This document shows, in pieces, positions 17,449-59,035 of a stretch of 64,000 nucleotides of DNA. The number at the start of each line of letters is the position of its first letter. The stretch's first letter is position 1. The position numbers and the translations under genes are program-made. The stretch is from Candidatus Latescibacterota bacterium (GTDB lineage: Bacteria; Latescibacterota; UBA2968; UBA8231), in NCBI GenBank assembly GCA_965242865.1, contig CBDETK010000008.1:1-64000 (forward strand), read 5' to 3'. The notes under the pieces were generated by a model. That model made no database searches. It was not told the origin of the DNA and saw only the letters and a list, made by a program, of their open reading frames with translations.

Positions 17449-17680
17449 CGGTTCTATTCGCGCATGAGACGGGAGCGCTCCCGCCCATGCACCGTCGCTT
17501 GAGGCGAGAGCGAATCCAACCAGCGCGTGGACCGTCCGTAACTTCCCTGATGGAAGTGTGCCAGCGATCGGACCGGCCCGGAAGCTCGCGAAGTCTCTCG
17601 CGGCAACCGCGCCGCCATGGACCACTGGAGCCTCTATATTGGACACGTTGCCGAAGCTCCGGGCATTCTACGGAACCTTG

Positions 17681-19546
17681 GTGCGCGCGATCTGGCTCTG
17701 TTGCGCGTTCGATCTCTCGGCACAGGAGCGATTCGGATTCGCCGATGCCCACGAATTCCTAGAGGACCACTGCCTGGCGTGCCACCAAGGAGCGGCGGCC
17801 GCCGTCGGATTCCGCGTAGACACGCTGCTGGGAGACAGTGCATTCCGCGAGCGTCCGGAAGCGTGGCTCAAACTCGCCGAGCGCGTCGAGGCGGGAGAAA
17901 TGCCGCCGAGGGGAGCCCGCCGTCCGCCGACAGATGCCCGGGTCGCGTTCGTCGACTGGATCGACCGCTCGTGGCGCGAACACGCCTGCCAAGCTGGCGA
18001 GCCTCCGGCGCGGTTTCCGGTCCGACGACTGAATCGCGACGAGTACAGCGCGACCGTCCGCGACCTGTTCGACATCCAGATCGACGTGAGCGAACGGTTT
18101 CCGGTGGACGGCGCCGGGGGAGAGGGCTTCGACCACGCTGCCGAGACTTTGTTCATTTCTCCCCTGCTCGCCGAAAAGTACTTGGAAACGGCTACCCATG
18201 TCGTGGACGTAGCGTCCAAGGAGTTCAAGTCACGCGCTCGAATCTTCGTCTCCCGGCCCGGCGCCGACGAGAGCGAGCAAGCGGCTGCCCGACGAATATT
18301 GGCGGAATTCCTGCCGCGAGCGTTCCGCAGGCCGGTTCGCGCCGACGAGATCGAATCTTATACCCGCCTCTTTCGCAGAGTCCGCCGCAAGGGGTTGGAT
18401 TTCGAGTCGGCGATCTTCGCCGCCTTGCGCAGCGCCCTCGTCTCGCCCGCATACCTGTTTCACGTGATTCCGGAACCAGCAGCGGCCGGATCCCGTCAAT
18501 TCGCGCTCGCGTCGAGATTCTCCTACTTCCTATGGGGCAGCATGCCCGACGAGCTGCTGCTCGACCTGGCGGCCGCGGGGCGGATGAGCGAACCGCAGGT
18601 TCTGGCCCGCCTCGTGCCGCGAATGCTACGTGACCAGCGAGTGCTGGAGTTCTTCACTCGGTTCACCGAGCAGTGGTTGCGAGTCCGTGAACTCGAAGGA
18701 GCGCATGGCCCGGACCCGATCCTATTTCCCAACTACCATGCCGATGCCGAACTGCGCGGGGATATCCGGCTGCAGCCCGTCTTTTTCTTCCGCGAGGTCT
18801 TCCGCAGCAACCGCTCGCTGCTGGAGTTCCTCGATTCCGGCGCGACGATCCTCACCCAGGGTCTCATCGATCATCTCGAACTCCCGATGAAGAAGAAGCA
18901 GGACTCCAAGAATCCCAATTGGATGGACCTGCCCGAGGGGTCCGGGCGCGGAGGCCTCCTCGGCATGCCGGCGATCGCGGCCGTGGCATCCCACGCGCAT
19001 CGCACCAGCCCGGTCTTGCGCGGCGCTTGGATACTGGACGCGATCCTCGGCACCCCGCCGCCGCCACCGCCGCCGGATGTGCCGGAACTCGAACAAGCTC
19101 CGCCGGGCGGGCCGCCCAAGTCCCTGCGAGAGATGCTGGCGCGGCACAGCCGCGAACCGACCTGCGCGAACTGTCATGCCCGGATCGATCCCTTCGGTTT
19201 CGCATTGGAGAACTACGACGTGCTCGGACGCTGGCGCGACGAGGACGGGGGCGTTCCCGTGGATGCCGCCGCGGAGTTGCTCGATGGCACGCGGCTGGCT
19301 GGCCCGGAGGATCTCAAGAAGGCCCTGCTTGATCGGAAGAGACTGTTTCTGAGGAACTTGACACGGCGCATGCTGGGCTATGCTCTTGGTAGAGGTTTGA
19401 CAAGCGCCGATGCGTGCGCGGTAGAAACCATCGTTCAGGACGTGGAGCGTCAGGAGTATTCCGCGTGGGCCCTGTTGCGGGGTGTCGTCACGAGCGAGCC
19501 GTTTCTCGGTCATTCGTCGCGAGTCGCGGAGACGGAGGTCGATTAG
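17681..19546 (+). CDS. DUF1592 domain protein (PSD family: DUF1587/1595/1592/1588/1585, cytochrome c)
   Basis: CLACH, RRLNRDEY, LASRFSYFLWGSMPD, RTSPVLRGAW, CANCH; start uncertain. Confidence 0.88.
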   Translation: MRAIWLCCAFDLSAQERFGFADAHEFLEDHCLACHQGAAAAVGFRVDTLLGDSAFRERPEAWLKLAERVEAGEMPPRGARRPPTDARVAFVDWIDRSWREHACQAGEPPARFPVRRLNRDEYSATVRDLFDIQIDVSERFPVDGAGGEGFDHAAETLFISPLLAEKYLETATHVVDVASKEFKSRARIFVSRPGADESEQAAARRILAEFLPRAFRRPVRADEIESYTRLFRRVRRKGLDFESAIFAALRSALVSPAYLFHVIPEPAAAGSRQFALASRFSYFLWGSMPDELLLDLAAAGRMSEPQVLARLVPRMLRDQRVLEFFTRFTEQWLRVRELEGAHGPDPILFPNYHADAELRGDIRLQPVFFFREVFRSNRSLLEFLDSGATILTQGLIDHLELPMKKKQDSKNPNWMDLPEGSGRGGLLGMPAIAAVASHAHRTSPVLRGAWILDAILGTPPPPPPPDVPELEQAPPGGPPKSLREMLARHSREPTCANCHARIDPFGFALENYDVLGRWRDEDGGVPVDAAAELLDGTRLAGPEDLKKALLDRKRLFLRNLTRRMLGYALGRGLTSADACAVETIVQDVERQEYSAWALLRGVVTSEPFLGHSSRVAETEVD

Positions 19547-21369: not shown

Positions 21370-21782
21370 CGGGAGGGTATTGCACCTGCACCGGACCAAG
21401 CGGACTTGGTGAGTCTCGTCCGCATGGAATCGGGGCCTCCGGCTCCGCACGGGCGATCGCACATGGTTTGGCTTTGACCCCGCCGGTACGATGCGCCGAA
21501 GTGTCGGCTGGGAACGCAGCTCTGCCACAACAGTGGTTCGCTTCGCGGGCAAACCCGTTGACCGGGGTGTCCGCGATACAGGTTCCGTCCCTTGGAACTT
21601 CCAGTGCCCATGAGCCGGTCCCGCGGATTGGTATCATGACAGAGAACGATCTGCCAGCAGTCATGCCCGATGCGCCGTTGGAAGCGTGGCAGTGTCAACG
21701 TCGTGGCCTGTCGGCTTGAATCGGATCGACCCGGGCCGCTCGATACAACGGGCGCAAGGCTGACGAAACTCGCTTGAGCGAC

Positions 21783-22919
21783 ATGCCGACCGACTTGCAC
21801 CTTCCCGATCTCTCGATTCGCGCGTTTCGCGGGATCGACAACCTGCGCGTGCCCCGCCTAGGCCGAGTCACGCTCGTGGTTGGGGAGAACGGCATTGGCA
21901 AGACCACGGTCATCGAAGCGGTCCGAGCCTATGCGTCGCGTGGCAGCACCGATACGCTTGGCGCAATCTTGGCCGAGCGGCAGGAGTTCTACCCGGTTTA
22001 CTTTGATCGCTCTTCCAGTGCAATCAATTGGTCTCCGCTCTTCTTTGGAAGAGATCCGGAACAAGTAAGTGAACTATCCATTGGCCCAAGCGCGGCCGAT
22101 CAGCGATTGCTTATCGAAGCCGATACCTTGTGGATGGGGAACACTCTTCGGACAAACTTAGTGAATCCTGGTTGGGAACACTCGAGCCCGGCAACAACAT
22201 TGTTGCGGATCGGATTCGGCCATTGTAACCTCACGGTAGGTAACAGTCCAACCTTTGATTCTCCGTCGCTCCGCAGGCTACCCGCGAAAACAAATCAGGA
22301 ATTGCCAAAGATCGCAGATCCGGAGCAGGAATTGACCGCTATCGAGTGCCTGAATATTGGTCCAATCGCGATGGACCCTAGCATGGTAGGGAGGCTATGG
22401 CCCAGAGTCGTACTGACAGATTCGGAGGACCTTATATTGGAGGCACTCCGTCTCGTATATGGCTCCGAGGTTGAACGTATCGCCGTGATCTCTCTTGATG
22501 ATCGGGAGGACCATAGAGTTCGTAATCAAGTGGTGGTCAAGATCAAGGGTATTGCAACCCCGGTTTCCATTCAGAGCCTCGGTGACGGAGCAATTCGAAT
22601 GTTCGGTGTTGGTCTTTGTCTCGCTGCTAGTCGCAACGGATTCTTCACGCTTGACGAAGCTGGGAATGGATTACACCACACCGTTCAACATCCCTTTTGG
22701 AGCATGGTCTTGAAGGCTGCTGAGGAAAACAATGTTCAGGTCATCGCGACCACGCACTCGTGGGACAGTGTTTGTGGTTTTGCCGAAGCTATTGCGAATT
22801 CGGGCGATGACAAGGGAGTCTTGGTGCGCTTGGAGCGACACCGAGGATCTCTTCGTGCGGTAGAATACTCCACGAAGCATGTGTCCGTTGCTGCTAGAGA
22901 GGGAATTGAGGTTCGATAG
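21783..22919 (+). CDS. ABC-type AAA ATPase (AAA_15/AAA_21-like)
   Basis: FRGI, Walker A GENGIGKT, signature QSLGDG, Walker B LDEAGNGLH, H-loop TTHS; lower GC. Confidence 0.88.
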   Translation: MPTDLHLPDLSIRAFRGIDNLRVPRLGRVTLVVGENGIGKTTVIEAVRAYASRGSTDTLGAILAERQEFYPVYFDRSSSAINWSPLFFGRDPEQVSELSIGPSAADQRLLIEADTLWMGNTLRTNLVNPGWEHSSPATTLLRIGFGHCNLTVGNSPTFDSPSLRRLPAKTNQELPKIADPEQELTAIECLNIGPIAMDPSMVGRLWPRVVLTDSEDLILEALRLVYGSEVERIAVISLDDREDHRVRNQVVVKIKGIATPVSIQSLGDGAIRMFGVGLCLAASRNGFFTLDEAGNGLHHTVQHPFWSMVLKAAEENNVQVIATTHSWDSVCGFAEAIANSGDDKGVLVRLERHRGSLRAVEYSTKHVSVAAREGIEVR

Positions 22920-22923
22920 TGCC

Positions 22924-23568
22924 ATGCCCACTCCTAGAGAATCAGTGTCAAGAAGTCGGGTCCTTCTGGTTGAAGGGGCAGATGATCGGTGGGTAGTCGA
23001 GCGTTTACTCGAACGGTTGGATCAACCACGATCATTCGATATCTTGCAGGCCAATGGTGTCGATGAACTCATTGATCGCATCGGATCCGAGGTGCTTGCT
23101 CAAGGTCGCGAAGTCTTCGGGGTGGTTGTCGATTCGGACAACGACATTGAGTCACGGTGGCAGGCAATTAGGCGCGAGTTCAAGAGTGTGGACATCGAAT
23201 TGCCAGTTGACAGGCGCACCCGAGGAGTGATTATGCCTAGTATTCCCCGCGTCGGAGTTTGGCTCATGCCGAACAATGTTTCGAGCGGACAACTCGAAGA
23301 TTTTGTGCAGTCAATGATACCATATGATGATCAAGTGTGGCCCTTGGCCGATTCTTTTGTGAATAGCATCCCACTGAATTTACGGGAGTTTTCTCCCAAC
23401 AAGACAGTCCGTGCAAAGCTGTATGCATGGCTTGCCACACGTAAGGAGCCAGGTCCCATGTCAAGAGCAATCCAAGCAAGATACCTCGACATCCACACTG
23501 AATTAGCGCAATCTTTCTTGAGCTTCTTGACTGAACTTTTTGACGAACCATTTGAAGACCAAAATTAG
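22924..23568 (+). CDS. DUF3226-family (TOPRIM-like) protein
   Basis: LLVEGADD, GVVVDSD, VGVWLMPNN, GQLEDF, AKLYAWLA; 4 nt after the ATPase. Confidence 0.85.
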   Translation: MPTPRESVSRSRVLLVEGADDRWVVERLLERLDQPRSFDILQANGVDELIDRIGSEVLAQGREVFGVVVDSDNDIESRWQAIRREFKSVDIELPVDRRTRGVIMPSIPRVGVWLMPNNVSSGQLEDFVQSMIPYDDQVWPLADSFVNSIPLNLREFSPNKTVRAKLYAWLATRKEPGPMSRAIQARYLDIHTELAQSFLSFLTELFDEPFEDQN

Positions 23569-24081: not shown

Positions 24082-27000
24082 ATGCATCTGCACAACGCAG
24101 CCAAGTTTCTTCTAATCGCGACAGTCGCCGTCCTCTTGCCGGCGGCCGCCTTCGCCCAAACATCGACAGGGCAGATCGCCGGCACCGTCCTGGACCAGTC
24201 CGGGGCCGTGATCCCGGGTGCGAGCGTCGCCGTCACCAACACGGAGACCGGCGAGCAGGTTCGCGCACTGCAATCCAACGAGGTCGGCCGGTTCTCGGCA
24301 CCGCTGCTCCGCCCGGGAATTTATTCCGTGGCTGCCGAACTGGAGGGTTTCAAGCAGTACGTTCAGGAAGACATCCAGTTGCGCGTGGACGAGACGGTCA
24401 CGCTCCGGCTGGTTCTCGAGCCCGGCACGATCACGGAGCAGGTCACCGTCGAGGCCACGGCTGTCCAGCTCGAGGAGACCACGCACAGCATCGGGCAGGT
24501 CGTCGGAGAGACCACGATCCAGAAGTTGCCCCTCAACGGTCGCAACTACTTGGATCTCGGGAACCTGACGGCTGGCACCGTGCCGAATTCTCGCTCGCGG
24601 GACAAGACGTATTCGGCCTACGGCAACCGCGGCTACCAGAACGCATACCTGCTGGACGGCGCGCGCAACGTCAACTACTTGCGCGGCTTGGACAATCGCC
24701 AGCGCGACGCGATGCGCCCGTCGTTGGAAGCGGTCGAAGAGTTCAAGGTCAACACGAGCAACTTTTCAGCCGAGTACGGGGCGTCGGCCGGAGCGGTCGT
24801 CAACGTCGTCACCAAGGGCGGCACCAACGAGTACCACGGCTCGGCCTTCTGGTTCCTCCGCAATGACAATCTGGACGCTCGCGACTACTTCGCTCCGCCG
24901 ACCACGGTAGACCCGCTGTACATCCAGCATCAGGCGGGCGGCGCGATGGGCGGTCCGGTCGTGTCCAACCGCGTGTTCTGGCACGCCGCTTACCAGCGCA
25001 CCCATATCACCGAGGGAACCACCTTGACGGGCAACGTCCCGTCGAGCGACGAGCGCTCCGGTCGCTTCGGCAGCCAGGCCATCTTCGATCCCTTCTCCAC
25101 TCGCCCGAATCCCGCCGGCGACGGATTCGTCCGCGACCAGTTCCCGGGGAACGAGATCCCGGCGTCCAGAATTGACTCCGTTGGCCGCGATGTCGTCAGC
25201 CGCTATCCCGCGCGGGTATTCGAGCGCACGACCCGCAACTACGTGCGCGCTCCGAACAACGGCATTCGCACCGACAACCTCACTGGGCGCGGTGACGTGC
25301 GCGTCAGCGATCTGGACAGCATGTTCGGGCGCTATTCGTTCAATCGGCCCGACTTCCAGCAGAACGCGGTGTTCGAGACGCCAGCCGGCAATCCGGTGGT
25401 GCGCGAAGGCGACGCCTACAGCATCGGGTACGGCTATACGCGCACCTTCTCGCCCACGGTAGTCAACGAGTTTCGCTTCGCTTGGAACCGCATCGGAGTC
25501 GATCAAGATGGCCTGACCCCGCGCGAGGAGATCATCGCCGGGGCGCTGCATCCCGACGTGACTAGCGGGACCCCCACCTTCGGCGTCACGGGCTTCACCG
25601 CGATCGGCGTCGCCCCGCCCGGGTTCGGCAATCTCCCGCTGCTCAAGTCCTCGGCCGTTTGGAATTTCTCGGACAACGTCTCGATGGTCCGCGGGCGGCA
25701 CACGACCAAGTTCGGATTCGACTACCAGATGATTCGCACCAAGACCTCCGCCACGCTTGCCGGGCGGGGGAGCTTTAGCTTCAACGGTGTGTTCTCGCAG
25801 GATCCGCTCAATCGGCCCGCCACCGGCTCGTCAATTGCCGATGTGCTGCTGGGACTTCCGAATTCGATCCAGACTGGCACCCGCGCAACTGCCCGCGAGC
25901 AGCAGCAGAACCTCTATTGGTACGTCCAGGACGACTGGCAGGCCACGTCCAGGCTCACGCTGAACCTCGGCGTGCGCTACGAACTGACCCAGCCGTTCAT
26001 CGAACTCGACAACCGCATGGCCAACTTCATCATGGATCAAGGCGATCCGGACTTCGGCAGTCTGATTCTGGCCGGTGACGGGCGCAAGCCGCGCAGCCTG
26101 CTGGAAACGGATCGCAACAATATCGCGCCCCGCTTCGGCTTCGCCCTGCGCGTCAGTGACGGGATCGTGATCCGCGGCGGGTACGGAGTCTTCTTCGGCC
26201 AGGACGAGGGGACGGGAGTCTTCCGGCGCATGACGAACAACCCGCCGTTCTTCGGATTCGGCGGCATCGGCTTGCCGAGCGACCAAGTGAATCCGTCCAG
26301 CACGATCGCGCTGAGCAGTTCCCTTCCGCCCCGGCCGGATGCGATCGCTCCGCAAGACTTCGTTCTGGATCCGCGCTCGACCGCGCGCCTGCGGAGTTGG
26401 AAGCAGCGGCTGGACATGCCGATGATCCAGCAATGGAACATCAGCATCCAGAAGCAGTTGCCGGGCAACATGCTCTGGGAGGTGAATTACGTCGGCAACG
26501 ACGGCCGGACGCTCTACGCATCCTACGAGGGCAACCAGCCCATGCCGGGCGCGGGATCCCAGAACGACCGCCGCCCGCTGGGGCAGTACACGCGGGCGCG
26601 CATCATCCGCACCGAGCCGTGGGCCACCAGCAATTACCACGGCGTCTCGTCCCGGTTGGAGAAGCGCTTCAGCGGCGGGCTCTCGTTCCTGATGGCGTAC
26701 ACCTTCGGCCGTTCCCTCGACACCGCCAGCAATCTCGGGAACTGCGACGGCTGCGGGCCCTCGGGCGACTACGGCGGCGTGCAAGACAGCCGCAATCTAG
26801 CCGAGAACCGCGGACCGTCGAATCACAACATCCCCCATCGGTTCGTGTTCAGCGGCGTGTACAGCCTCCCCTTCGGCGCGGGCCGCGCCAAGCTGAACGA
26901 CGGCGCGCTCAAGCACCTGCTCGGAGGCTGGGATCTGTCGGGCATCGTGACCTTCTCGGACGGGATTCCATTCACCCCGGCACTGAACTTCGACAACGCG

Positions 27001-27363
27001 AACACCGGAACGATTTCCCGCCCCGACCGCATCGGAGACGGAGCGTTGTCCAACCCGACCATCGACCGGTATTTCGATATCGACGCATTCGTGTTCCCGG
27101 AACGCTACACCTACGGCAATTCGGGGCGGAACATCCTGTACGGGCCGGGCACGAACATGGTGAACTTCGCCTTGCACCGCAACTTCGGGCTGCCGATGAG
27201 CGAGGCGTCCCGGATCGAGTTCCGGTTCGAGGCCTTCAATTTCTTCAACCGTCCGCACTTCGGCTTGCCGGGCCTAAGCATCGGCAACCGGAACGCAGGG
27301 GTGATCGGCGGGACTTCGGAAGCCAACCGTCAGCTCCAATTCGGACTGAAGCTGATCTTCTGA
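24082..27363 (+). CDS. TonB-dependent receptor (Oar-like, carboxypeptidase-regulatory-like N domain)
   Basis: GTVLDQSGAVIPGA, LPLNGRNY, EEFKVNTSNFSAEYG, QDDW, RQLQFGLKLIF terminus. Confidence 0.93.
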   Translation: MHLHNAAKFLLIATVAVLLPAAAFAQTSTGQIAGTVLDQSGAVIPGASVAVTNTETGEQVRALQSNEVGRFSAPLLRPGIYSVAAELEGFKQYVQEDIQLRVDETVTLRLVLEPGTITEQVTVEATAVQLEETTHSIGQVVGETTIQKLPLNGRNYLDLGNLTAGTVPNSRSRDKTYSAYGNRGYQNAYLLDGARNVNYLRGLDNRQRDAMRPSLEAVEEFKVNTSNFSAEYGASAGAVVNVVTKGGTNEYHGSAFWFLRNDNLDARDYFAPPTTVDPLYIQHQAGGAMGGPVVSNRVFWHAAYQRTHITEGTTLTGNVPSSDERSGRFGSQAIFDPFSTRPNPAGDGFVRDQFPGNEIPASRIDSVGRDVVSRYPARVFERTTRNYVRAPNNGIRTDNLTGRGDVRVSDLDSMFGRYSFNRPDFQQNAVFETPAGNPVVREGDAYSIGYGYTRTFSPTVVNEFRFAWNRIGVDQDGLTPREEIIAGALHPDVTSGTPTFGVTGFTAIGVAPPGFGNLPLLKSSAVWNFSDNVSMVRGRHTTKFGFDYQMIRTKTSATLAGRGSFSFNGVFSQDPLNRPATGSSIADVLLGLPNSIQTGTRATAREQQQNLYWYVQDDWQATSRLTLNLGVRYELTQPFIELDNRMANFIMDQGDPDFGSLILAGDGRKPRSLLETDRNNIAPRFGFALRVSDGIVIRGGYGVFFGQDEGTGVFRRMTNNPPFFGFGGIGLPSDQVNPSSTIALSSSLPPRPDAIAPQDFVLDPRSTARLRSWKQRLDMPMIQQWNISIQKQLPGNMLWEVNYVGNDGRTLYASYEGNQPMPGAGSQNDRRPLGQYTRARIIRTEPWATSNYHGVSSRLEKRFSGGLSFLMAYTFGRSLDTASNLGNCDGCGPSGDYGGVQDSRNLAENRGPSNHNIPHRFVFSGVYSLPFGAGRAKLNDGALKHLLGGWDLSGIVTFSDGIPFTPALNFDNANTGTISRPDRIGDGALSNPTIDRYFDIDAFVFPERYTYGNSGRNILYGPGTNMVNFALHRNFGLPMSEASRIEFRFEAFNFFNRPHFGLPGLSIGNRNAGVIGGTSEANRQLQFGLKLIF

Positions 27364-27379: not shown

Positions 27380-27456
27380 TGGTACCGACGGATGGATTTG
27401 AACCATCGACCTCCTGATCCACAATCAGGCGCTCTAACCAACTGAGCTACGTCGGC
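27380..27456 (-). tRNA. tRNA-His (GTG), non-canonical: no encoded G-1, A73, G1:U72
   Basis: GCCGACG-TA-GCTC AGTTGGTTA GAGC-G-CCTGA TT GTG GA TCAGG-AGGTC-GATGG TTCAAAT CCATC-CGTCGGT-A-CCA cloverleaf. Confidence 0.95.
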
Positions 27457-27535
27457 ATCTTGCCGCACGGGCGCGAGTGCGTCGCAACGATCATCCGTCA
27501 ACGGTACTCCAAGCCCTGAATTTTCAGCATACACG

Positions 27536-29119
27536 ATGGCGATCGAGAAGCAAGCATCAGGACGCTCTCGCCCGTTCAACAGGCGGCGATTCCTAACGGC
27601 CGGTGCGTTGGCGCCGTGGATTCCGACCGGATTCGGAGCGGCTGCGGAAGCTCCTCCGGCTCTGCGGCTCGAGTACCGTGTGCAAACCCCGCCGCCGCTG
27701 CCCCCTCCGTTCGAGATCGACCCGCCGGCTCGCGTGACGGTCGGCTTTCAGGGCACCGGTGACCGGGCCCGATGCTGGCTCGGCCTGCATGTCGCGCGCA
27801 ACGGCAAGTCGGGCCTGTTGCCGCTCGCGCTGTGGATCGAGGATGCGCGGCAATACTGGGAGGCCCGCGAAGCCCTGCGCCTGCCTGCCTTCCGCGGTTC
27901 GGTCGCTTGGGACAGCGAGACGTGGAGTCTATCCGTTGGCGGAAGGAGGGAGTTCACGGCGCGGCCCTCCGCCAAGGAATCGGCCGGTGACGCAGGAGCA
28001 CCTCCGCTGCCTTGGTACACGTATTCGTTCGCGCTGTCTCCGGACTGGACTGTCGGTCCCTTCGCGGAAGAGGTACCGGAACTGTGGCGACTGCAACCTC
28101 TTTCCGCAGAGCCGTCACTGCGGTTGGATCCGGCGGCCTGCACCGTGGGTGGCGGGCTTGGCGGATGGCTCGCCAAGCTAGGCGCTTCCGACTTGATCGC
28201 GGCGTCGGCTGGCAGCGGCTCGCCTGACTGGCAACCGGAATTCGTACAGGTTGTCGATGCGAGCTCGCTGGAACCGTTCGCGTTCCGAACCTACAGTCCC
28301 GGCTCACTGCAACTGGTTCCGCGTGACACGCAATTCGTCGCGCCGCCGGATATCGCGGCCTATCGCGGGCACCGCCATCTTTTCCAAACCGGTCTAGCGG
28401 TCGTGTCCGTGGATGTCTTCGGCGGCTCGCAAGCGGCTCAGGGGTTGCTTCCGCCGCCTTGCGAGCCCATCCCGAACGCTTCGCTCCGCGCTATGGCTGT
28501 CCGCGGTCTCGACGATCCGCGCCACGACGAAGCGTGGCTGCTCGTCGAATGCGCGTTGCAGGGCAGGCGGGTATGGTACGCGCTCGCGCATCTGCGATCC
28601 AGCCTCGGGGCCTCGGAATTCGGCCGCGAAGTGCTCGGATACCCCACCAAGGACGGCACGGTGACCGCGACGATCGGCGGCAATCGATTCGGTTCGGGGG
28701 TCTCGCGACGCGGCGCGAGCCTGTTCCGAGCCGACGGATTCTACGGAGGGTTCTCGACAGGGACCTCGCTCGCCGAGATGAATGTCGCTACCTTGCGGTC
28801 GCGGCCTGCCACGCGCAACCGGGCCGTGCATGGCGAGATCGTGACCCAGTCGTGGTACTTCCAAGGCTTGCGACAGCCCGCGAATCCAGCGAGCTTGGAC
28901 GCGTCGTTCCCCGCCGGGAAAGGCCGGGAGGTCTGGAATCGAATCGGGCCTGTGCGGCCCTACGCTGCCTTGGTGCTCGACGGCGCAGCGATGCAGCGAT
29001 TGCCTGGAACGGTGGCGGCCGAGGTCGCGGACATCGCGCCCTACTATCGCGACCGCTGCGACGGCGCGTTGCCTTGGGAAGACATCGGCCCGACGGTCCA
29101 GGCCGAATCCTCGGACTAG
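27536..29119 (+). CDS. Tat-exported acetoacetate-decarboxylase-like protein
   Basis: FNRRRFL Tat motif; C-terminal half LLPPPCEP...DEAWLLVEC...FGREVLGYPTK resembles ADC family. Confidence 0.65.
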   Translation: MAIEKQASGRSRPFNRRRFLTAGALAPWIPTGFGAAAEAPPALRLEYRVQTPPPLPPPFEIDPPARVTVGFQGTGDRARCWLGLHVARNGKSGLLPLALWIEDARQYWEAREALRLPAFRGSVAWDSETWSLSVGGRREFTARPSAKESAGDAGAPPLPWYTYSFALSPDWTVGPFAEEVPELWRLQPLSAEPSLRLDPAACTVGGGLGGWLAKLGASDLIAASAGSGSPDWQPEFVQVVDASSLEPFAFRTYSPGSLQLVPRDTQFVAPPDIAAYRGHRHLFQTGLAVVSVDVFGGSQAAQGLLPPPCEPIPNASLRAMAVRGLDDPRHDEAWLLVECALQGRRVWYALAHLRSSLGASEFGREVLGYPTKDGTVTATIGGNRFGSGVSRRGASLFRADGFYGGFSTGTSLAEMNVATLRSRPATRNRAVHGEIVTQSWYFQGLRQPANPASLDASFPAGKGREVWNRIGPVRPYAALVLDGAAMQRLPGTVAAEVADIAPYYRDRCDGALPWEDIGPTVQAESSD

Positions 29120-44726: not shown

Positions 44727-46295
44727 TCAAGACGATTCCGCCTCGACATCGACGAAGCGTACTTCCTGTCCCCGGCGGATCTGCGAATGCTTGCGGAATG
44801 CCGATCGCGGCTCCGGGAAGTCCGAGCGGTAGTGGCCTCCCCGGCTTTCTTCTCGCCCTAGGGCGCAGCGCGCCACCAGCCGGATGATTTGGTACATGTT
44901 ATCGGTCTCGAATCCGGCCCGGCTGCTCCGCGCCAATCCCTTCTCGAACAGCGTCGACAGCAGGTCGAGTTGCTCGAGGCCCGCGCGGAGGCCTTCCCCG
45001 GAACGGGTGATGCCCGCGTGCCGCCAAGCGAGGTGGCGCAGGTTGGCGATGGCGTTGCCGGGCAGTGCGCTGGCCGGTCCCCGGTGCTTGATGCTCGGCC
45101 TCCGCACGGGCGCGTCGATTCTCGAGCGCATGGTTTCACCGGCCTCCGCTCCGAATACGAGCCCTTCGAGCAGCGAGTTGCTGGCCAGGCGGTTCGCACC
45201 GTGGACGCCGTTGCAAGCGACTTCGCCAGCCGCGAAAAGGCCGGGCAGGGTGGTAGAGCCATCGAGACTCGTCACCACCCCGCCCATCGCGTAGTGCGCC
45301 GCCGGGTGGACGGGGACCGGTTCGAGTTCCAAGTCCACGCCGTACGCCAGACAGGTTCGATAGACGCGCGGAAAGCGTTTGCGCACGTGCCCCGGCGCGA
45401 GGTGGGTCAGGTCGAGATAGACCGGACCCTTGCGCAAGCGCGCCAGCTCGCGCACGATGGCGCGCGAGACGATGTCGCGTGGCGCCAGTTCTTCGCTCTC
45501 GTGGTAGCGGGACATGAAGCGCTGCATGTCCGCGTTGCGCAGCACCGCTCCCTCGCCTCGCAGAGCCTCTGACAGCAGGAAGCGCGGAGCACCTTCCAAG
45601 AACAGCGCCGTGGGGTGAAACTGGACCATCTCCATGTTCGCGACCGTGGCCCCGGCCCGATAGGCCATCGCCACGCCGTCGCCGGTCGCCACGACCGGAT
45701 TTGTCGTCTCGCGATACACCCGGCCAATGCCGCCGGTCGCGAGCAGGACGGCGCGGGAATGGATGGGGACGAGCTCGCGCTGCTTCTCGTCCCACGCCAC
45801 GGCCCCGCAGACCTCTCCGTCCTCCATCAGCAGGTCGACCACCGACGAGAAACTTTGGAAAGAAATCGCCTCGATCGCCTGCGCCTTGCGAAACAGCGTG
45901 CGGGCGATTTCCCGTCCGGTCGAGTCGCCGTCGGCGTGCAGCACGCGATTGACGCTGTGGGCGCCTTCGATGGCGAAGGTCAGCTTCCCGCCGGCCGTGT
46001 CGAATTCGGCGCCCCAGTTGATCAGTCGCTGGATCCTGCGCGGACCGGCTTCGGCCAAGGCGCGAACGGCGCGCGGGTCGCAGAGCCCTGCGCCGGCGAG
46101 CAGCGTGTCCTGTTCGTGCAGGCGCACCTCGTCTTCGTCGCTCAGCGCGACTGCCACGCCCCCTTGCGAGTACTCGGTGGCGGACTCGGTCAGGCGATCC
46201 TTGGTCAGAACCAGCACCCGGCCGGCCGCGGAAGCCTCAATTGCGGCACTCAGTCCGGCGACCCCCGCGCCGCACACCAGAATGTCCGTTTCCAT
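44727..46295 (-). CDS. nadB: L-aspartate oxidase
   Basis: GAGVAGL, SQGGVA, EGAHS, QFHPT, SEALRGEG, AHYAMGG, GVHGANRLASNSLLEG, ESRGGH. Confidence 0.95.
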   Translation of the reverse strand: METDILVCGAGVAGLSAAIEASAAGRVLVLTKDRLTESATEYSQGGVAVALSDEDEVRLHEQDTLLAGAGLCDPRAVRALAEAGPRRIQRLINWGAEFDTAGGKLTFAIEGAHSVNRVLHADGDSTGREIARTLFRKAQAIEAISFQSFSSVVDLLMEDGEVCGAVAWDEKQRELVPIHSRAVLLATGGIGRVYRETTNPVVATGDGVAMAYRAGATVANMEMVQFHPTALFLEGAPRFLLSEALRGEGAVLRNADMQRFMSRYHESEELAPRDIVSRAIVRELARLRKGPVYLDLTHLAPGHVRKRFPRVYRTCLAYGVDLELEPVPVHPAAHYAMGGVVTSLDGSTTLPGLFAAGEVACNGVHGANRLASNSLLEGLVFGAEAGETMRSRIDAPVRRPSIKHRGPASALPGNAIANLRHLAWRHAGITRSGEGLRAGLEQLDLLSTLFEKGLARSSRAGFETDNMYQIIRLVARCALGREESRGGHYRSDFPEPRSAFRKHSQIRRGQEVRFVDVEAESS

Positions 46296-46353
46296 GCCGT
46301 CGCGGGCCTGTCGCGCCGTCCGCCGCGAAGCCCATGGTACAAAAGGGACATCG

Positions 46354-47460
46354 ATGTTCGTTCCCGTCGAGACAGGCTCTGGACGCTACGAGGTTCGCAT
46401 CCGAGCTGGCACGCTCTTGCAGGCTGCGGTCTATATCCGCGAAGCGCTCGGGGAACGGAGGCTGTTTGTCATCGCGGATGAAGCGGTTTGGGACGCTCAA
46501 GGGCACTACTTGACGAGCGGGTTGGCTGACGCGGACTGGGCCGTGCTCGCAGTGCCCCTAGGGGAGCCGCGCAAGCGTTTGGCCACGGTCGAGCAACTGT
46601 GCGAGGCGATGCATGTCGCGGGAACTGATCGGCACACGGTCGTGGTGGCATTCGGCGGAGGGGTCGCGGGTGATATTTGCGGATTCGTGGCCGCGTCGTA
46701 CATGCGCGGCGTCGATCTCGTGCAAATCCCCACCACCTTGCTGGCCCAAGTCGACGCCTCCGTGGGCGGCAAGACCGGAGTGAATCTCGCCACCGGGAAG
46801 AACTTGGTGGGCGCGTTCCACCAGCCGAAGCTCGTGCTGATCGACCCGGATATTCTCGAGACCCTGCCGGACCGGGAGTATCGCGCGGGCGTGCAGGAAG
46901 TTGTGAAGCATGGCGTCATCCGCAGCGCGGAGCTATTCGAGTTCATGGAAAAGGAGCGGGATGCCGTTCTGGCCCGAGAGAGCAAGGCTGTCGAATACAT
47001 GATTGCGGAGTCGGTGCGCATCAAGGCGGACGTGGTGCGGCGTGACGAGCGCGAAGGCGGCCTGCGTCGCATCCTGAATTTCGGGCATACGCTCGGTCAC
47101 GCCTTGGAGGCGGAGACCGGATACAGCCTCCTGTTGCATGGAGAGGCTGTCGCGTTCGGCATGATCGCTGCTGCGAGGCTGTCCGAACTGCGCGGCCGCC
47201 TCGCGACGCGCGAACGCAAGAGGATCGAAGCGACCGTGCTTTCCTACTGCGACCTGCCGGACTTGTCTGACTTGGATGCCGTCGCAATAGCGTCGCGGGT
47301 CGCGGGCGACAAGAAGTCTGTTGGAGGGCAGGCGCGCTTCGTGCTGGCCGAAGGGATCGGAAGCGTTTGCGAGGAAGTCGCCCCGCCCCAGGAACAAGTC
47401 ATTAATGCGACCAAGCACGCCTTGCGGGTTTGTCGCACCAAGGGCGGGTCAGCAGGATAG
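46354..47460 (+). CDS. aroB: 3-dehydroquinate synthase
   Basis: GGGVAGD, PTTLLAQVDASVGGKTG, KNLVGAFHQP, LNFGHTLGHALE. Confidence 0.96.
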   Translation: MFVPVETGSGRYEVRIRAGTLLQAAVYIREALGERRLFVIADEAVWDAQGHYLTSGLADADWAVLAVPLGEPRKRLATVEQLCEAMHVAGTDRHTVVVAFGGGVAGDICGFVAASYMRGVDLVQIPTTLLAQVDASVGGKTGVNLATGKNLVGAFHQPKLVLIDPDILETLPDREYRAGVQEVVKHGVIRSAELFEFMEKERDAVLARESKAVEYMIAESVRIKADVVRRDEREGGLRRILNFGHTLGHALEAETGYSLLLHGEAVAFGMIAAARLSELRGRLATRERKRIEATVLSYCDLPDLSDLDAVAIASRVAGDKKSVGGQARFVLAEGIGSVCEEVAPPQEQVINATKHALRVCRTKGGSAG

Positions 47461-57991: not shown

Positions 57992-58078
57992 GAAGACTCA
58001 GTGATAGCTGGTTGTACGATAAAGGCCAAGGTGCCGGGCCGCGGCGCTTCGCCACTGGCCCGCCGCCCGAGCGACAGC

Positions 58079-59035
58079 GTGAGTGGATTCGTCCCGATCG
58101 GCAACCTGCGTGCCAAGCCGATGGTTCCGCCGCACGCGAAGCCCTTGGAGAACCCGGCCGGTCCCAGGCCGCGCTGGCTCCTCGCTCCCGCCGCTACCGG
58201 CGAGAACTACCAGCGCCTGCGGCGCTTGACGTCGGAGTTACGCCTGCACACGGTCTGCGAGAGCGCGGCCTGCCCGAATGTCGGGGAATGCTGGAACCGG
58301 CTGAGCGCGACATTCATGATTCTGGGCAATGTCTGCACGCGTCGTTGCGGATTCTGCGCGGTCCAGAAGGGGCCTCCCGACACCGTGGATTACGACGAGC
58401 CGCGCCGAGTCGCCGAAGCTGTCGCGCAGCTCGGATTGCGCCACGCCGTGATCACTAGCGTCAATCGGGACGACCGGGAAGACGGAGGCGCCGAACTCTT
58501 CGCGATGGTCATCCGCGCGATCCGTGATAGGCTCCCGACTTGCACGGTGGAGGTACTCGTCCCGGACTTCCAAGGTGCTCGTGCCGCGATGGACATCGTC
58601 CTCGATGCGCGGCCCGATGTGCTGAACCACAACGTCGAAACGGTCTCTCGTCTCTATCGGGCCGTCCGCGTTGGTTCCGATTACCAGCGGTCACTGGGCA
58701 TGCTGCGCTACGCCAGCGCGCAAGTGCCTGCGATGCCGACCAAGTCCGGCATCATGCTCGGCCTGGGAGAGACTTCCGAGGAGATTCGGAGCACCCTGTC
58801 GGACTTGCGCGACCACGGCGTCTCGGTGCTGACGATCGGCCAGTACTTGCGACCCTCCCCCGATCACCTCGCCATCCAGAGATTCTACGCACCGGAGGAA
58901 TTCGACGAGTACCGGGAGTTGGGTTACCGACTGGGATTCCGCCACGTGGAATCCGGGGCGCTGGTGCGCAGTTCGTACCACGCAGACGAAGGCGCTCACG
59001 CATTGAGCGCGCGAGACGGTGCCAAGCCTTCTTGA
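58079..59035 (+). CDS. lipA: Lipoyl synthase
   Basis: LHTVCESAACPNVGECW, CTRRCGFC, NHNVETV, KSGIMLGLGE, IGQYLRP, VRSSYHA; start GTG 58079 or ATG 58121. Confidence 0.96.
   Translation: MSGFVPIGNLRAKPMVPPHAKPLENPAGPRPRWLLAPAATGENYQRLRRLTSELRLHTVCESAACPNVGECWNRLSATFMILGNVCTRRCGFCAVQKGPPDTVDYDEPRRVAEAVAQLGLRHAVITSVNRDDREDGGAELFAMVIRAIRDRLPTCTVEVLVPDFQGARAAMDIVLDARPDVLNHNVETVSRLYRAVRVGSDYQRSLGMLRYASAQVPAMPTKSGIMLGLGETSEEIRSTLSDLRDHGVSVLTIGQYLRPSPDHLAIQRFYAPEEFDEYRELGYRLGFRHVESGALVRSSYHADEGAHALSARDGAKPS

Follow-up and report, generated by a model that had tools for sequence, protein, structure and literature searches.

The tRNA-His gene analysed here is very likely the ordinary, and probably the sole, tRNA-His gene of a sponge-associated acidobacterium that uses an identity system lacking G-1, and it lies on a contig (C8) that was mis-binned with the main contig (C13) of another organism. 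Its family, together with a second acidobacterial order, is a new taxonomic home for the known G-1-less tRNA-His/HisRS system. The usual teaching is that G-1 marks the identity of tRNA-His almost universally. The window, that is, the whole stretch of DNA that was analysed, comprises 64,000 nucleotides of C8.

ARAGORN called a tRNA-His with anticodon gtg, and the Rfam tRNA model RF00005 matched positions 27383–27456 with 76 bits (E 6.9e-15). The earlier note had described a GTG anticodon, the acceptor stem with its G1:U72 pair, A73, an encoded CCA and T at position -1, and ARAGORN, Rfam and the sequence itself agree with it in every detail; its span of 27380–27457 takes in base -1, whereas the gene proper is one base shorter (Table 1). 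The acceptor stem includes the G1:U72 wobble, C2:G71, C3:G70 and G4:C69. The D loop consists of nine bases (AGTTGGTTA), a length that is not discriminating here because canonical acidobacterial tRNA-His also has nine. The encoded G-1:C73 of the canonical bacterial type is absent, with T-1 and A73 in its place, and T-1 could in principle pair with A73. Over positions 11–67 the gene is 93% identical to one canonical tRNA-His. A scan beside the gene for a sigma-70-like promoter and an intrinsic terminator found neither. Judged by its sequence, the gene is real and functional-looking. Sponge-metagenome runs from several studies yielded contigs that contain the locus, with the listed differences in the flanks and none inside the tRNA; no RNA run was listed among those with the locus. 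In four of these runs (X2, X5, X6 and X7), contigs often end at the tRNA (27380–27457), and contigs of other organisms align to the tRNA core with about six differences; several tRNA-His-bearing organisms are therefore present in those samples.

Table 1 Features of the tRNA-His gene and its surroundings in the window.
Feature	Position	Strand	Basis
tRNA-His(GTG) gene, G-1-less type, 77 nt	27380–27456	-	ARAGORN; Rfam; sequence
Position -1 = T, not G	27457	-	sequence read
5′ acceptor strand GCCGACG, G1 at 27456	27450–27456	-	sequence read; alignment
3′ acceptor strand CGTCGGT; U72 at 27384 opposite G1	27384–27390	-	sequence read
Discriminator A73	27383	-	sequence read
CCA encoded at 3′ end	27380–27382	-	sequence read
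Anticodon GTG	27420–27422	-	ARAGORN and sequence read
TonB-dependent-receptor-like protein of the outer membrane (CarboxypepD_reg + OMP_b-brl_4), convergent to the tRNA gene	24082–27363	+	Pfam
ORF with weak acetoacetate-decarboxylase-like domain, not hisS	27536–29119	+	Pfam
aroB	45727–47460	+	TIGR01357, 352.6 bits
lipA	58001–59035	+	TIGR00510, 370.7 bits

The receptor gene next to the tRNA has a domain architecture that we take to be typical of Acidobacteriota and fits an acidobacterial source; a homologue of it adjoins tRNA-His in one of 20 loci from relatives (L205). Defence-like genes are abundant on C8. Among them are an AAA_21 ATPase paired with a DUF3226 protein (21774–23568 of the window), a 1829-aa protein combining a kinase-like part with a DISARM DrmA-like helicase (C8:137268–142757; L040:13268–18757) and a SocA-type antitoxin (L039:10893–11441). 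The contig also carries several sulfatase genes and, at 17558–19546 of the window, a protein with the complete planctomycete-type PSD/PSCyt domain set (DUF1587, DUF1592, DUF1595, DUF1588 and DUF1585) and a cytochrome c part; the PSD/PSCyt protein and the sulfatases fit a marine, sponge-associated lifestyle.

PurA placed C8 more precisely. Among the named-genome matches listed, the closest was a MAG titled 'Bryobacteraceae bacterium' (60% identity), and MAGs titled Acidobacteriaceae or Acidobacteriota followed at 52–54%. The best identities among 401 genomes sampled evenly from that phylum were 56–60%. Within the order of the Bryobacteraceae MAG, identity rose to 77% for G709, 70–71% for G769, G777 and G759, and 65% for G815, against 56–60% for canonical-type members of the same order. 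The impression in the earlier note that the surroundings look acidobacterial was thus borne out, with the Acidobacteriota and Bryobacteraceae labels taken from the titles of the PurA matches and many MAGs among the relatives. An alphaproteobacterial source was rejected because the best PurA matches, the OMP_b-brl_4/CarboxypepD_reg receptor and the 77% PurA identity to G709 all indicate Acidobacteriota. C8 belongs to a sponge-associated acidobacterium of the family of G709.

The assembly (G000) consists of 13 contigs, with C13 (5.61 Mb) as the main one and C8 measuring 154 kb, and its stated contamination is 6.84%. A canonical tRNA-His (G-1, C73) lies at 4998406–4998482 of C13, which also holds the sole hisS of the assembly above the family cut-off (2632517–2633749; L001:1468–2745, minus strand); no hisS was found on contigs C1–C12. 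The presence of both tRNA-His genes and a single hisS in one assembly is what would be seen if C8 were a second replicon of the C13 cell, its G-1-less tRNA-His being an extra copy that is uncharged, poorly charged or otherwise used. Nor is composition very far apart, since the C8–C13 tetranucleotide correlation (0.888) equals the lowest value among 20-kb chunks of C13 (mean 0.964, minimum 0.888). Against such a replicon, four single-copy housekeeping genes are duplicated between the two contigs at only 46–55% identity (lipA 55.5%, aroB 48.1%, purA 47.5% and queG 46.0%), and the C8 PurA reaches 77% identity with a genome from a phylum other than the assembly's. The assembly's phylum comprises 168 genomes, and the phylum of the best PurA relatives of C8 (G168) is a larger, different group. 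BLAST of all 168 genomes, together with inspection of 29 loci, showed no full-length match to the C8 tRNA in the 167 other genomes and a canonical tRNA-His at all 29 best loci inspected. With the contamination figure also against it, we regard the second-replicon explanation as very unlikely. Because of the divergent housekeeping duplicates, the tetranucleotide profile, the contamination figure and the different PurA phylum, we conclude that C8 comes from a different organism than C13 and was mis-binned.

This bears on the case that the earlier note had set against its own reading, namely a canonical tRNA-His and HisRS elsewhere in the genome. Taken literally, both exist in the assembly, on C13; as they sit on another organism's contig, they do not refute the G-1-less reading. 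A genome-level check for a canonical tRNA-His in this chimeric assembly would wrongly have discarded the finding. Divergent duplicates of C13 tRNAs occur on other small contigs as well (Asp(gtc) on C5 and Gly(gcc) on C11, besides Leu(taa) and His on C8), and the tetranucleotide correlation with C13 is lower for most small contigs (0.83–0.89); several of them, besides C8, are probably mis-binned too. The C13 HisRS, which goes with the canonical tRNA-His (G-1, C73), reached 523 bits with PDB entry 3hrk and 517 bits with 3hri; the next solved HisRS, 1wu7, was far behind at 272 bits. We take 3hrk and 3hri to be trypanosomatid HisRS structures, in which case the scores hint at an old gene transfer between the assembly's phylum and trypanosomatids.

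The earlier note had proposed surveying relatives, building a HisRS phylogeny and searching for Thg1-like genes, and all three analyses came out in favour of its reading. For the survey, we used a degenerate pattern that combined anticodon loop, T loop and U72-A73-CCA end and gave one match in the window and none in 100 shuffles; the pattern surveys detect only genes whose CCA is encoded and whose variable loop measures 5 nt. In the order of G168, 72 of 201 genomes matched, all of them in the family of G709. All 77 genomes of this family were then searched with a type-neutral tRNA-His pattern and the ends read row by row. Every genome gave a match, and the U72-A73-CCA end was present in 75, three of which have C32 and had been missed by the first pattern. 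The two exceptions are G755, with U72-G73, and G831, without a tRNA-like match. An additional match of the canonical type occurred in one of the 77 genomes (G825, positions 116–160 of the separate small contig C244). Outside the family, members of the same order have canonical C72-C73-CCA ends among the 150 matches listed of 266, with three exceptions in that set: G844, of the G-1-less type with C32, and G718 and G859, with A72-A73. The G-1-less tRNA-His is therefore a clade trait of the family of G709.

Of the 19 tRNA-His genes that ARAGORN called at 20 of the family's loci, 15 carry T at position -1, four carry C and none carries G. All 19 have U72 and A73; at position 1, 17 have G and two have A, giving A1:U72 at L205 (G697) and L209 (G723). 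The genes of G769, G777, G759 and G771 are identical to the C8 gene at 76 of 77 positions. A canonical tRNA-His used as BLAST query found the G-1-less locus as the only substantive match in all five single-contig relatives, with an additional 21-base D-arm match only in G709. The status of sole tRNA-His thus holds by BLAST for five of five relatives, the C8 organism itself being represented by a 154-kb fragment only. Most members of the family have a single G-1-less copy; some, such as G791 and G741, have two to five, spread over hundreds of kilobases. G823 and G841 have extra tRNA-His copies with C72-A73. Within one order, the A1:U72, A72-A73, U72-G73 and C72-A73 variants represent naturally occurring mutants of the positions proposed to determine identity.

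A mobile-element, phage-derived or decaying copy rather than a working tRNA-His could be suspected from the AAA_21/DUF3226 pair near the gene and from the multiple copies in G791 and G741, but the gene folds into a perfect cloverleaf at 76 bits, is conserved at 76 of 77 positions across species-level genomes, belongs to a type found in 75 of 77 family genomes and is the sole tRNA-His in the five relatives checked, and the sponge samples differ in the flanks with no listed difference inside the tRNA. We consider such an origin extremely improbable.

The G-1-less type extends to a second acidobacterial order, that of G247. In the phylum sample, the pattern matched six of 401 genomes; two matches were not tRNAs, and the four real ones all belong to this order. 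Within the order itself, 92 of 127 genomes matched (89 of 124 without the unpublished G609, G663 and G664, all of which are positive). At its loci (L146–L149 and L166–L193), T occupies position -1 in all 33 tRNA-His genes, G217 and G648 having two tandem tRNA copies, and in 31 of 32 loci (30 of 31 without the unpublished L188) the next gene after the tRNA, in the same orientation, is hisS, which looks like a conserved tRNA-His-hisS operon. In the family of G709, no hisS was found within about 1.5 kb of the tRNA-His at any of 20 loci. For PurA of the order of G247, no named-genome locus matched above 56%.

Each of five G-1-less relatives of C8 has one hisS above the cut-off, encoding an enzyme of about 472 aa that scores 352–372 bits, whereas in all five canonical members of that order examined the HisRS measures 414–435 aa and scores 466–481 bits. 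The organism of C8 probably also encodes a HisRS of the G-1-less type, as these five nearest relatives do. Acidobacterial G-1-less HisRS shares a mean identity of 26% (22–26%) with canonical HisRS of the same order, 60% between the family of G709 and the order of G247, and 39–40% with HisRS from Rhodobacterales; canonical HisRS of the same order and of another acidobacterial class share 46%. The Rhodobacterales set was drawn from the order of a MAG titled Rhodobacteraceae (G173), whose own tRNA-His likewise has T-1, G1:U72 and A73. A search of that MAG recovered no HisRS, and a candidate, L160, was rejected as ThrRS.

Sequence marks in these enzymes follow the tRNA type. Where it describes T. 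thermophilus HisRS, Tian 2015 (PMC4357726) assigns the G-1 phosphate to Arg115 and Arg122, backbone contacts at nucleotides 70–72 to Gln117 and Lys118, and the G-1 pocket to Gly72′-Gly73′, which is replaced by two Asp in C. crescentus. The canonical motif-2 loop E-R-P-Q-K-G-R-x-R becomes D-K-P-x-x-G-R-x-R in nine of nine acidobacterial G-1-less HisRS and E-K-P-G-P-G-R-x-R in 12 of 12 Rhodobacterales HisRS, so that the Arg115 position is Lys in all 21 and Arg in 11 of 11 canonical-associated enzymes. The nine acidobacterial enzymes have no Gly in the pocket dipeptide, which reads E-N, E-E or the like; this position separates the classes imperfectly because nine of the 12 Rhodobacterales enzymes keep Gly in the stretch compared. 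The anticodon-binding domain of the same 21 HisRS contains an insert of some 17 aa, with a W-x-x-R-x-x-Q core common to the acidobacterial and Rhodobacterales enzymes, and the 11 canonical-associated ones lack this insert. The account of C. crescentus in Yuan 2011 (PMC3064791) treats the anticodon-binding-domain insert as the likely anticodon reader.

In a FastTree phylogeny of 32 sequences, covering one alphaproteobacterial order and with SH-like supports, the Rhodobacterales enzymes and both acidobacterial groups form one clade (support 0.995), in which the two acidobacterial groups join at 1.0; the enzyme of a Pyrinomonadaceae MAG with canonical tRNA-His and the C13 HisRS fall outside it. 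The single HisRS of each of the five relatives thus groups with Rhodobacterales and not with the canonical enzymes. Convergence from a resident acidobacterial HisRS, with the same reading of the tRNA, would draw on the Pyrinomonadaceae MAG (G170), whose HisRS belongs to the same broad subfamily and is 36% identical to the G-1-less ones, and on the identity of only about 40% between the acidobacterial and Rhodobacterales enzymes. We judge it unlikely, given that the clade excludes the Pyrinomonadaceae enzyme at 0.995, that the insert with its W-x-x-R-x-x-Q core and the Arg-to-Lys change are common to both sides, and that sister families within the order carry canonical HisRS that look unrelated (26% identity). 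The earlier note had left open whether the lineage acquired or convergently evolved an alternative tRNA-His/HisRS identity system; the system itself is supported, and the HisRS clade favours acquisition of a homologous HisRS, or a shared origin, as the more probable course.

The features A73 and no encoded G-1 are also those of eukaryotic genes, and in PDB searches the relatives' HisRS scored about 200 bits against the human cytoplasmic enzyme, more than against those of E. coli and T. thermophilus (about 86–88 bits). One could accordingly imagine a eukaryote-like route, with a G added opposite A73 post-transcriptionally and charging by a G-1-dependent HisRS. However, Thg1 (PF04446) was missing from all ten acidobacterial genomes searched, five from each clade, and from the assembly, which contains only a fragment of the C8 organism, while an M. 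acetivorans control was positive. Where T. thermophilus has the Arg that binds the G-1 phosphate, nine of nine acidobacterial enzymes have Lys, and they also lack Gly at the G-1 pocket dipeptide; these marks are common to Rhodobacterales, whose clade works without G-1 according to Yuan 2011 (PMC3064791). We therefore hold the eukaryote-like route to be highly improbable.

The preferred reading, a tRNA-His used without G-1, suggests the following course. U at -1 is the usual favoured leader base for RNase P. RNase P would be expected to cut the C8 precursor at the usual -1/+1 site, so that the mature tRNA would start at G1 and have a 7-bp acceptor stem. Charging would fall to a HisRS of the alphaproteobacterial G-1-less clade, which, by analogy with C. 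crescentus biochemistry and in view of the shared sequence marks, may recognise the anticodon and U72, and A73 to a lesser degree, in place of G-1:C73. For C. crescentus HisRS, the data given in Yuan 2011 (PMC3064791) identify U72 as an identity element (91-fold loss for U72C) and report 91- to 1000-fold losses for anticodon mutants, a minor part for A73 and no gain from an added G-1.

Among known systems, the alphaproteobacterial pair is the closest; this G-1-less tRNA-His with its divergent HisRS is reportedly also the subject of work by Wang in 2007 and by Ardell and Andersson in 2006. Like the pair described for C. crescentus (Yuan 2011, PMC3064791), the C8 tRNA has no G-1 and has A73, G1:U72, C3:G70, a nine-base D loop and CCA; C3:G70 is listed there, as is a D loop of nine bases that includes U20a, among the features of tRNA-His without G-1 in Alphaproteobacteria. 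The relatives' HisRS groups with Rhodobacterales and has the common insert and the motif-2 Lys, and Thg1 is lacking. In contrast to that pair, the host is an acidobacterial family. The enzymes also differ in length (about 472 aa in acidobacteria, about 500–510 aa in Rhodobacterales, at about 40% identity), in an 8-aa catalytic-domain insert that all 12 Rhodobacterales HisRS have and the acidobacterial G-1-less HisRS lack, and in the pocket dipeptide, E-N or E-E as opposed to the Asp pair reported for C. crescentus in the structural part of Tian 2015 (PMC4357726). Position 1 is A in two of 19 relatives' genes (A1:U72), unlike the alphaproteobacterial G1:U72.

The C8 tRNA resembles canonical bacterial tRNA-His in its anticodon, D arm and similar core and differs from it, as portrayed in Tian 2015 (PMC4357726), at positions -1, 72 and 73 of the acceptor end. 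The relatives' enzyme, unlike HisRS of the E. coli/T. thermophilus type, has no Arg115, no Gln117/Lys118 and no Gly-Gly pocket. The likeness to eukaryotic tRNA-His consists of A73, the missing encoded G-1 and, by PDB scores, a HisRS in the broad archaeal/eukaryal-like subfamily; the differences are the lack of Thg1, the G1:U72 pair and the bacterial G-1-less marks of the relatives' HisRS. In eukaryotic tRNA-His this pair is G1:C72. Protists without Thg1 (T. brucei and A. castellanii) are said to have been described by Rao and Jackman in 2015. The operon that joins tRNA-Trp(A73) with TrpRS-A in CPR bacteria, as presented in parts of Mukai 2017 (PMC5370408), is comparable in that a foreign-looking tRNA is linked to a synthetase gene, as in the order of G247. 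It concerns another amino acid, and the CPR pair coexists with the canonical pair, whereas in the C8 family tRNA and hisS are unlinked (0 of 20 loci) and there is no canonical pair.

A full-text literature search found no report of a G-1-less tRNA-His in Acidobacteria, although an older mention, for example in supplements, is possible. For bacteria, the section of a 2023 tRNA identity review (PMC9976931) that deals with this exception lists 'some groups of alpha-Proteobacteria' alone, and the passages of Mukai 2016 (PMC5389517) on G-1-less 8/4 tRNA-His mention it only in phages and one alphaproteobacterium.

A homologous HisRS accompanies the G-1-less tRNA in both acidobacterial groups, so that the exception reaches beyond a single clade and is linked to synthetase replacement. 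We tentatively suggest, as a possibility that falls somewhat short of probable, that tRNA-His and HisRS of the G-1-less type form a self-sufficient (orthogonal) module capable of horizontal transfer, which as a tRNA-hisS cassette displaced the canonical pair at least once in Acidobacteriota, with the two genes separating later in the family of C8. The cassette form is the one seen in the 31 of 32 loci of the order of G247, and Alphaproteobacteria would then be one of several recipients or donors and not the unique origin. The changed rule is the norm in an acidobacterial family of 77 genomes and occurs in a second order in 92 of its 127 genomes, and these groups offer independent natural replicates for asking how an essential tRNA identity rule is swapped, whether the pair moves as a cassette and which HisRS residues bear the switch.
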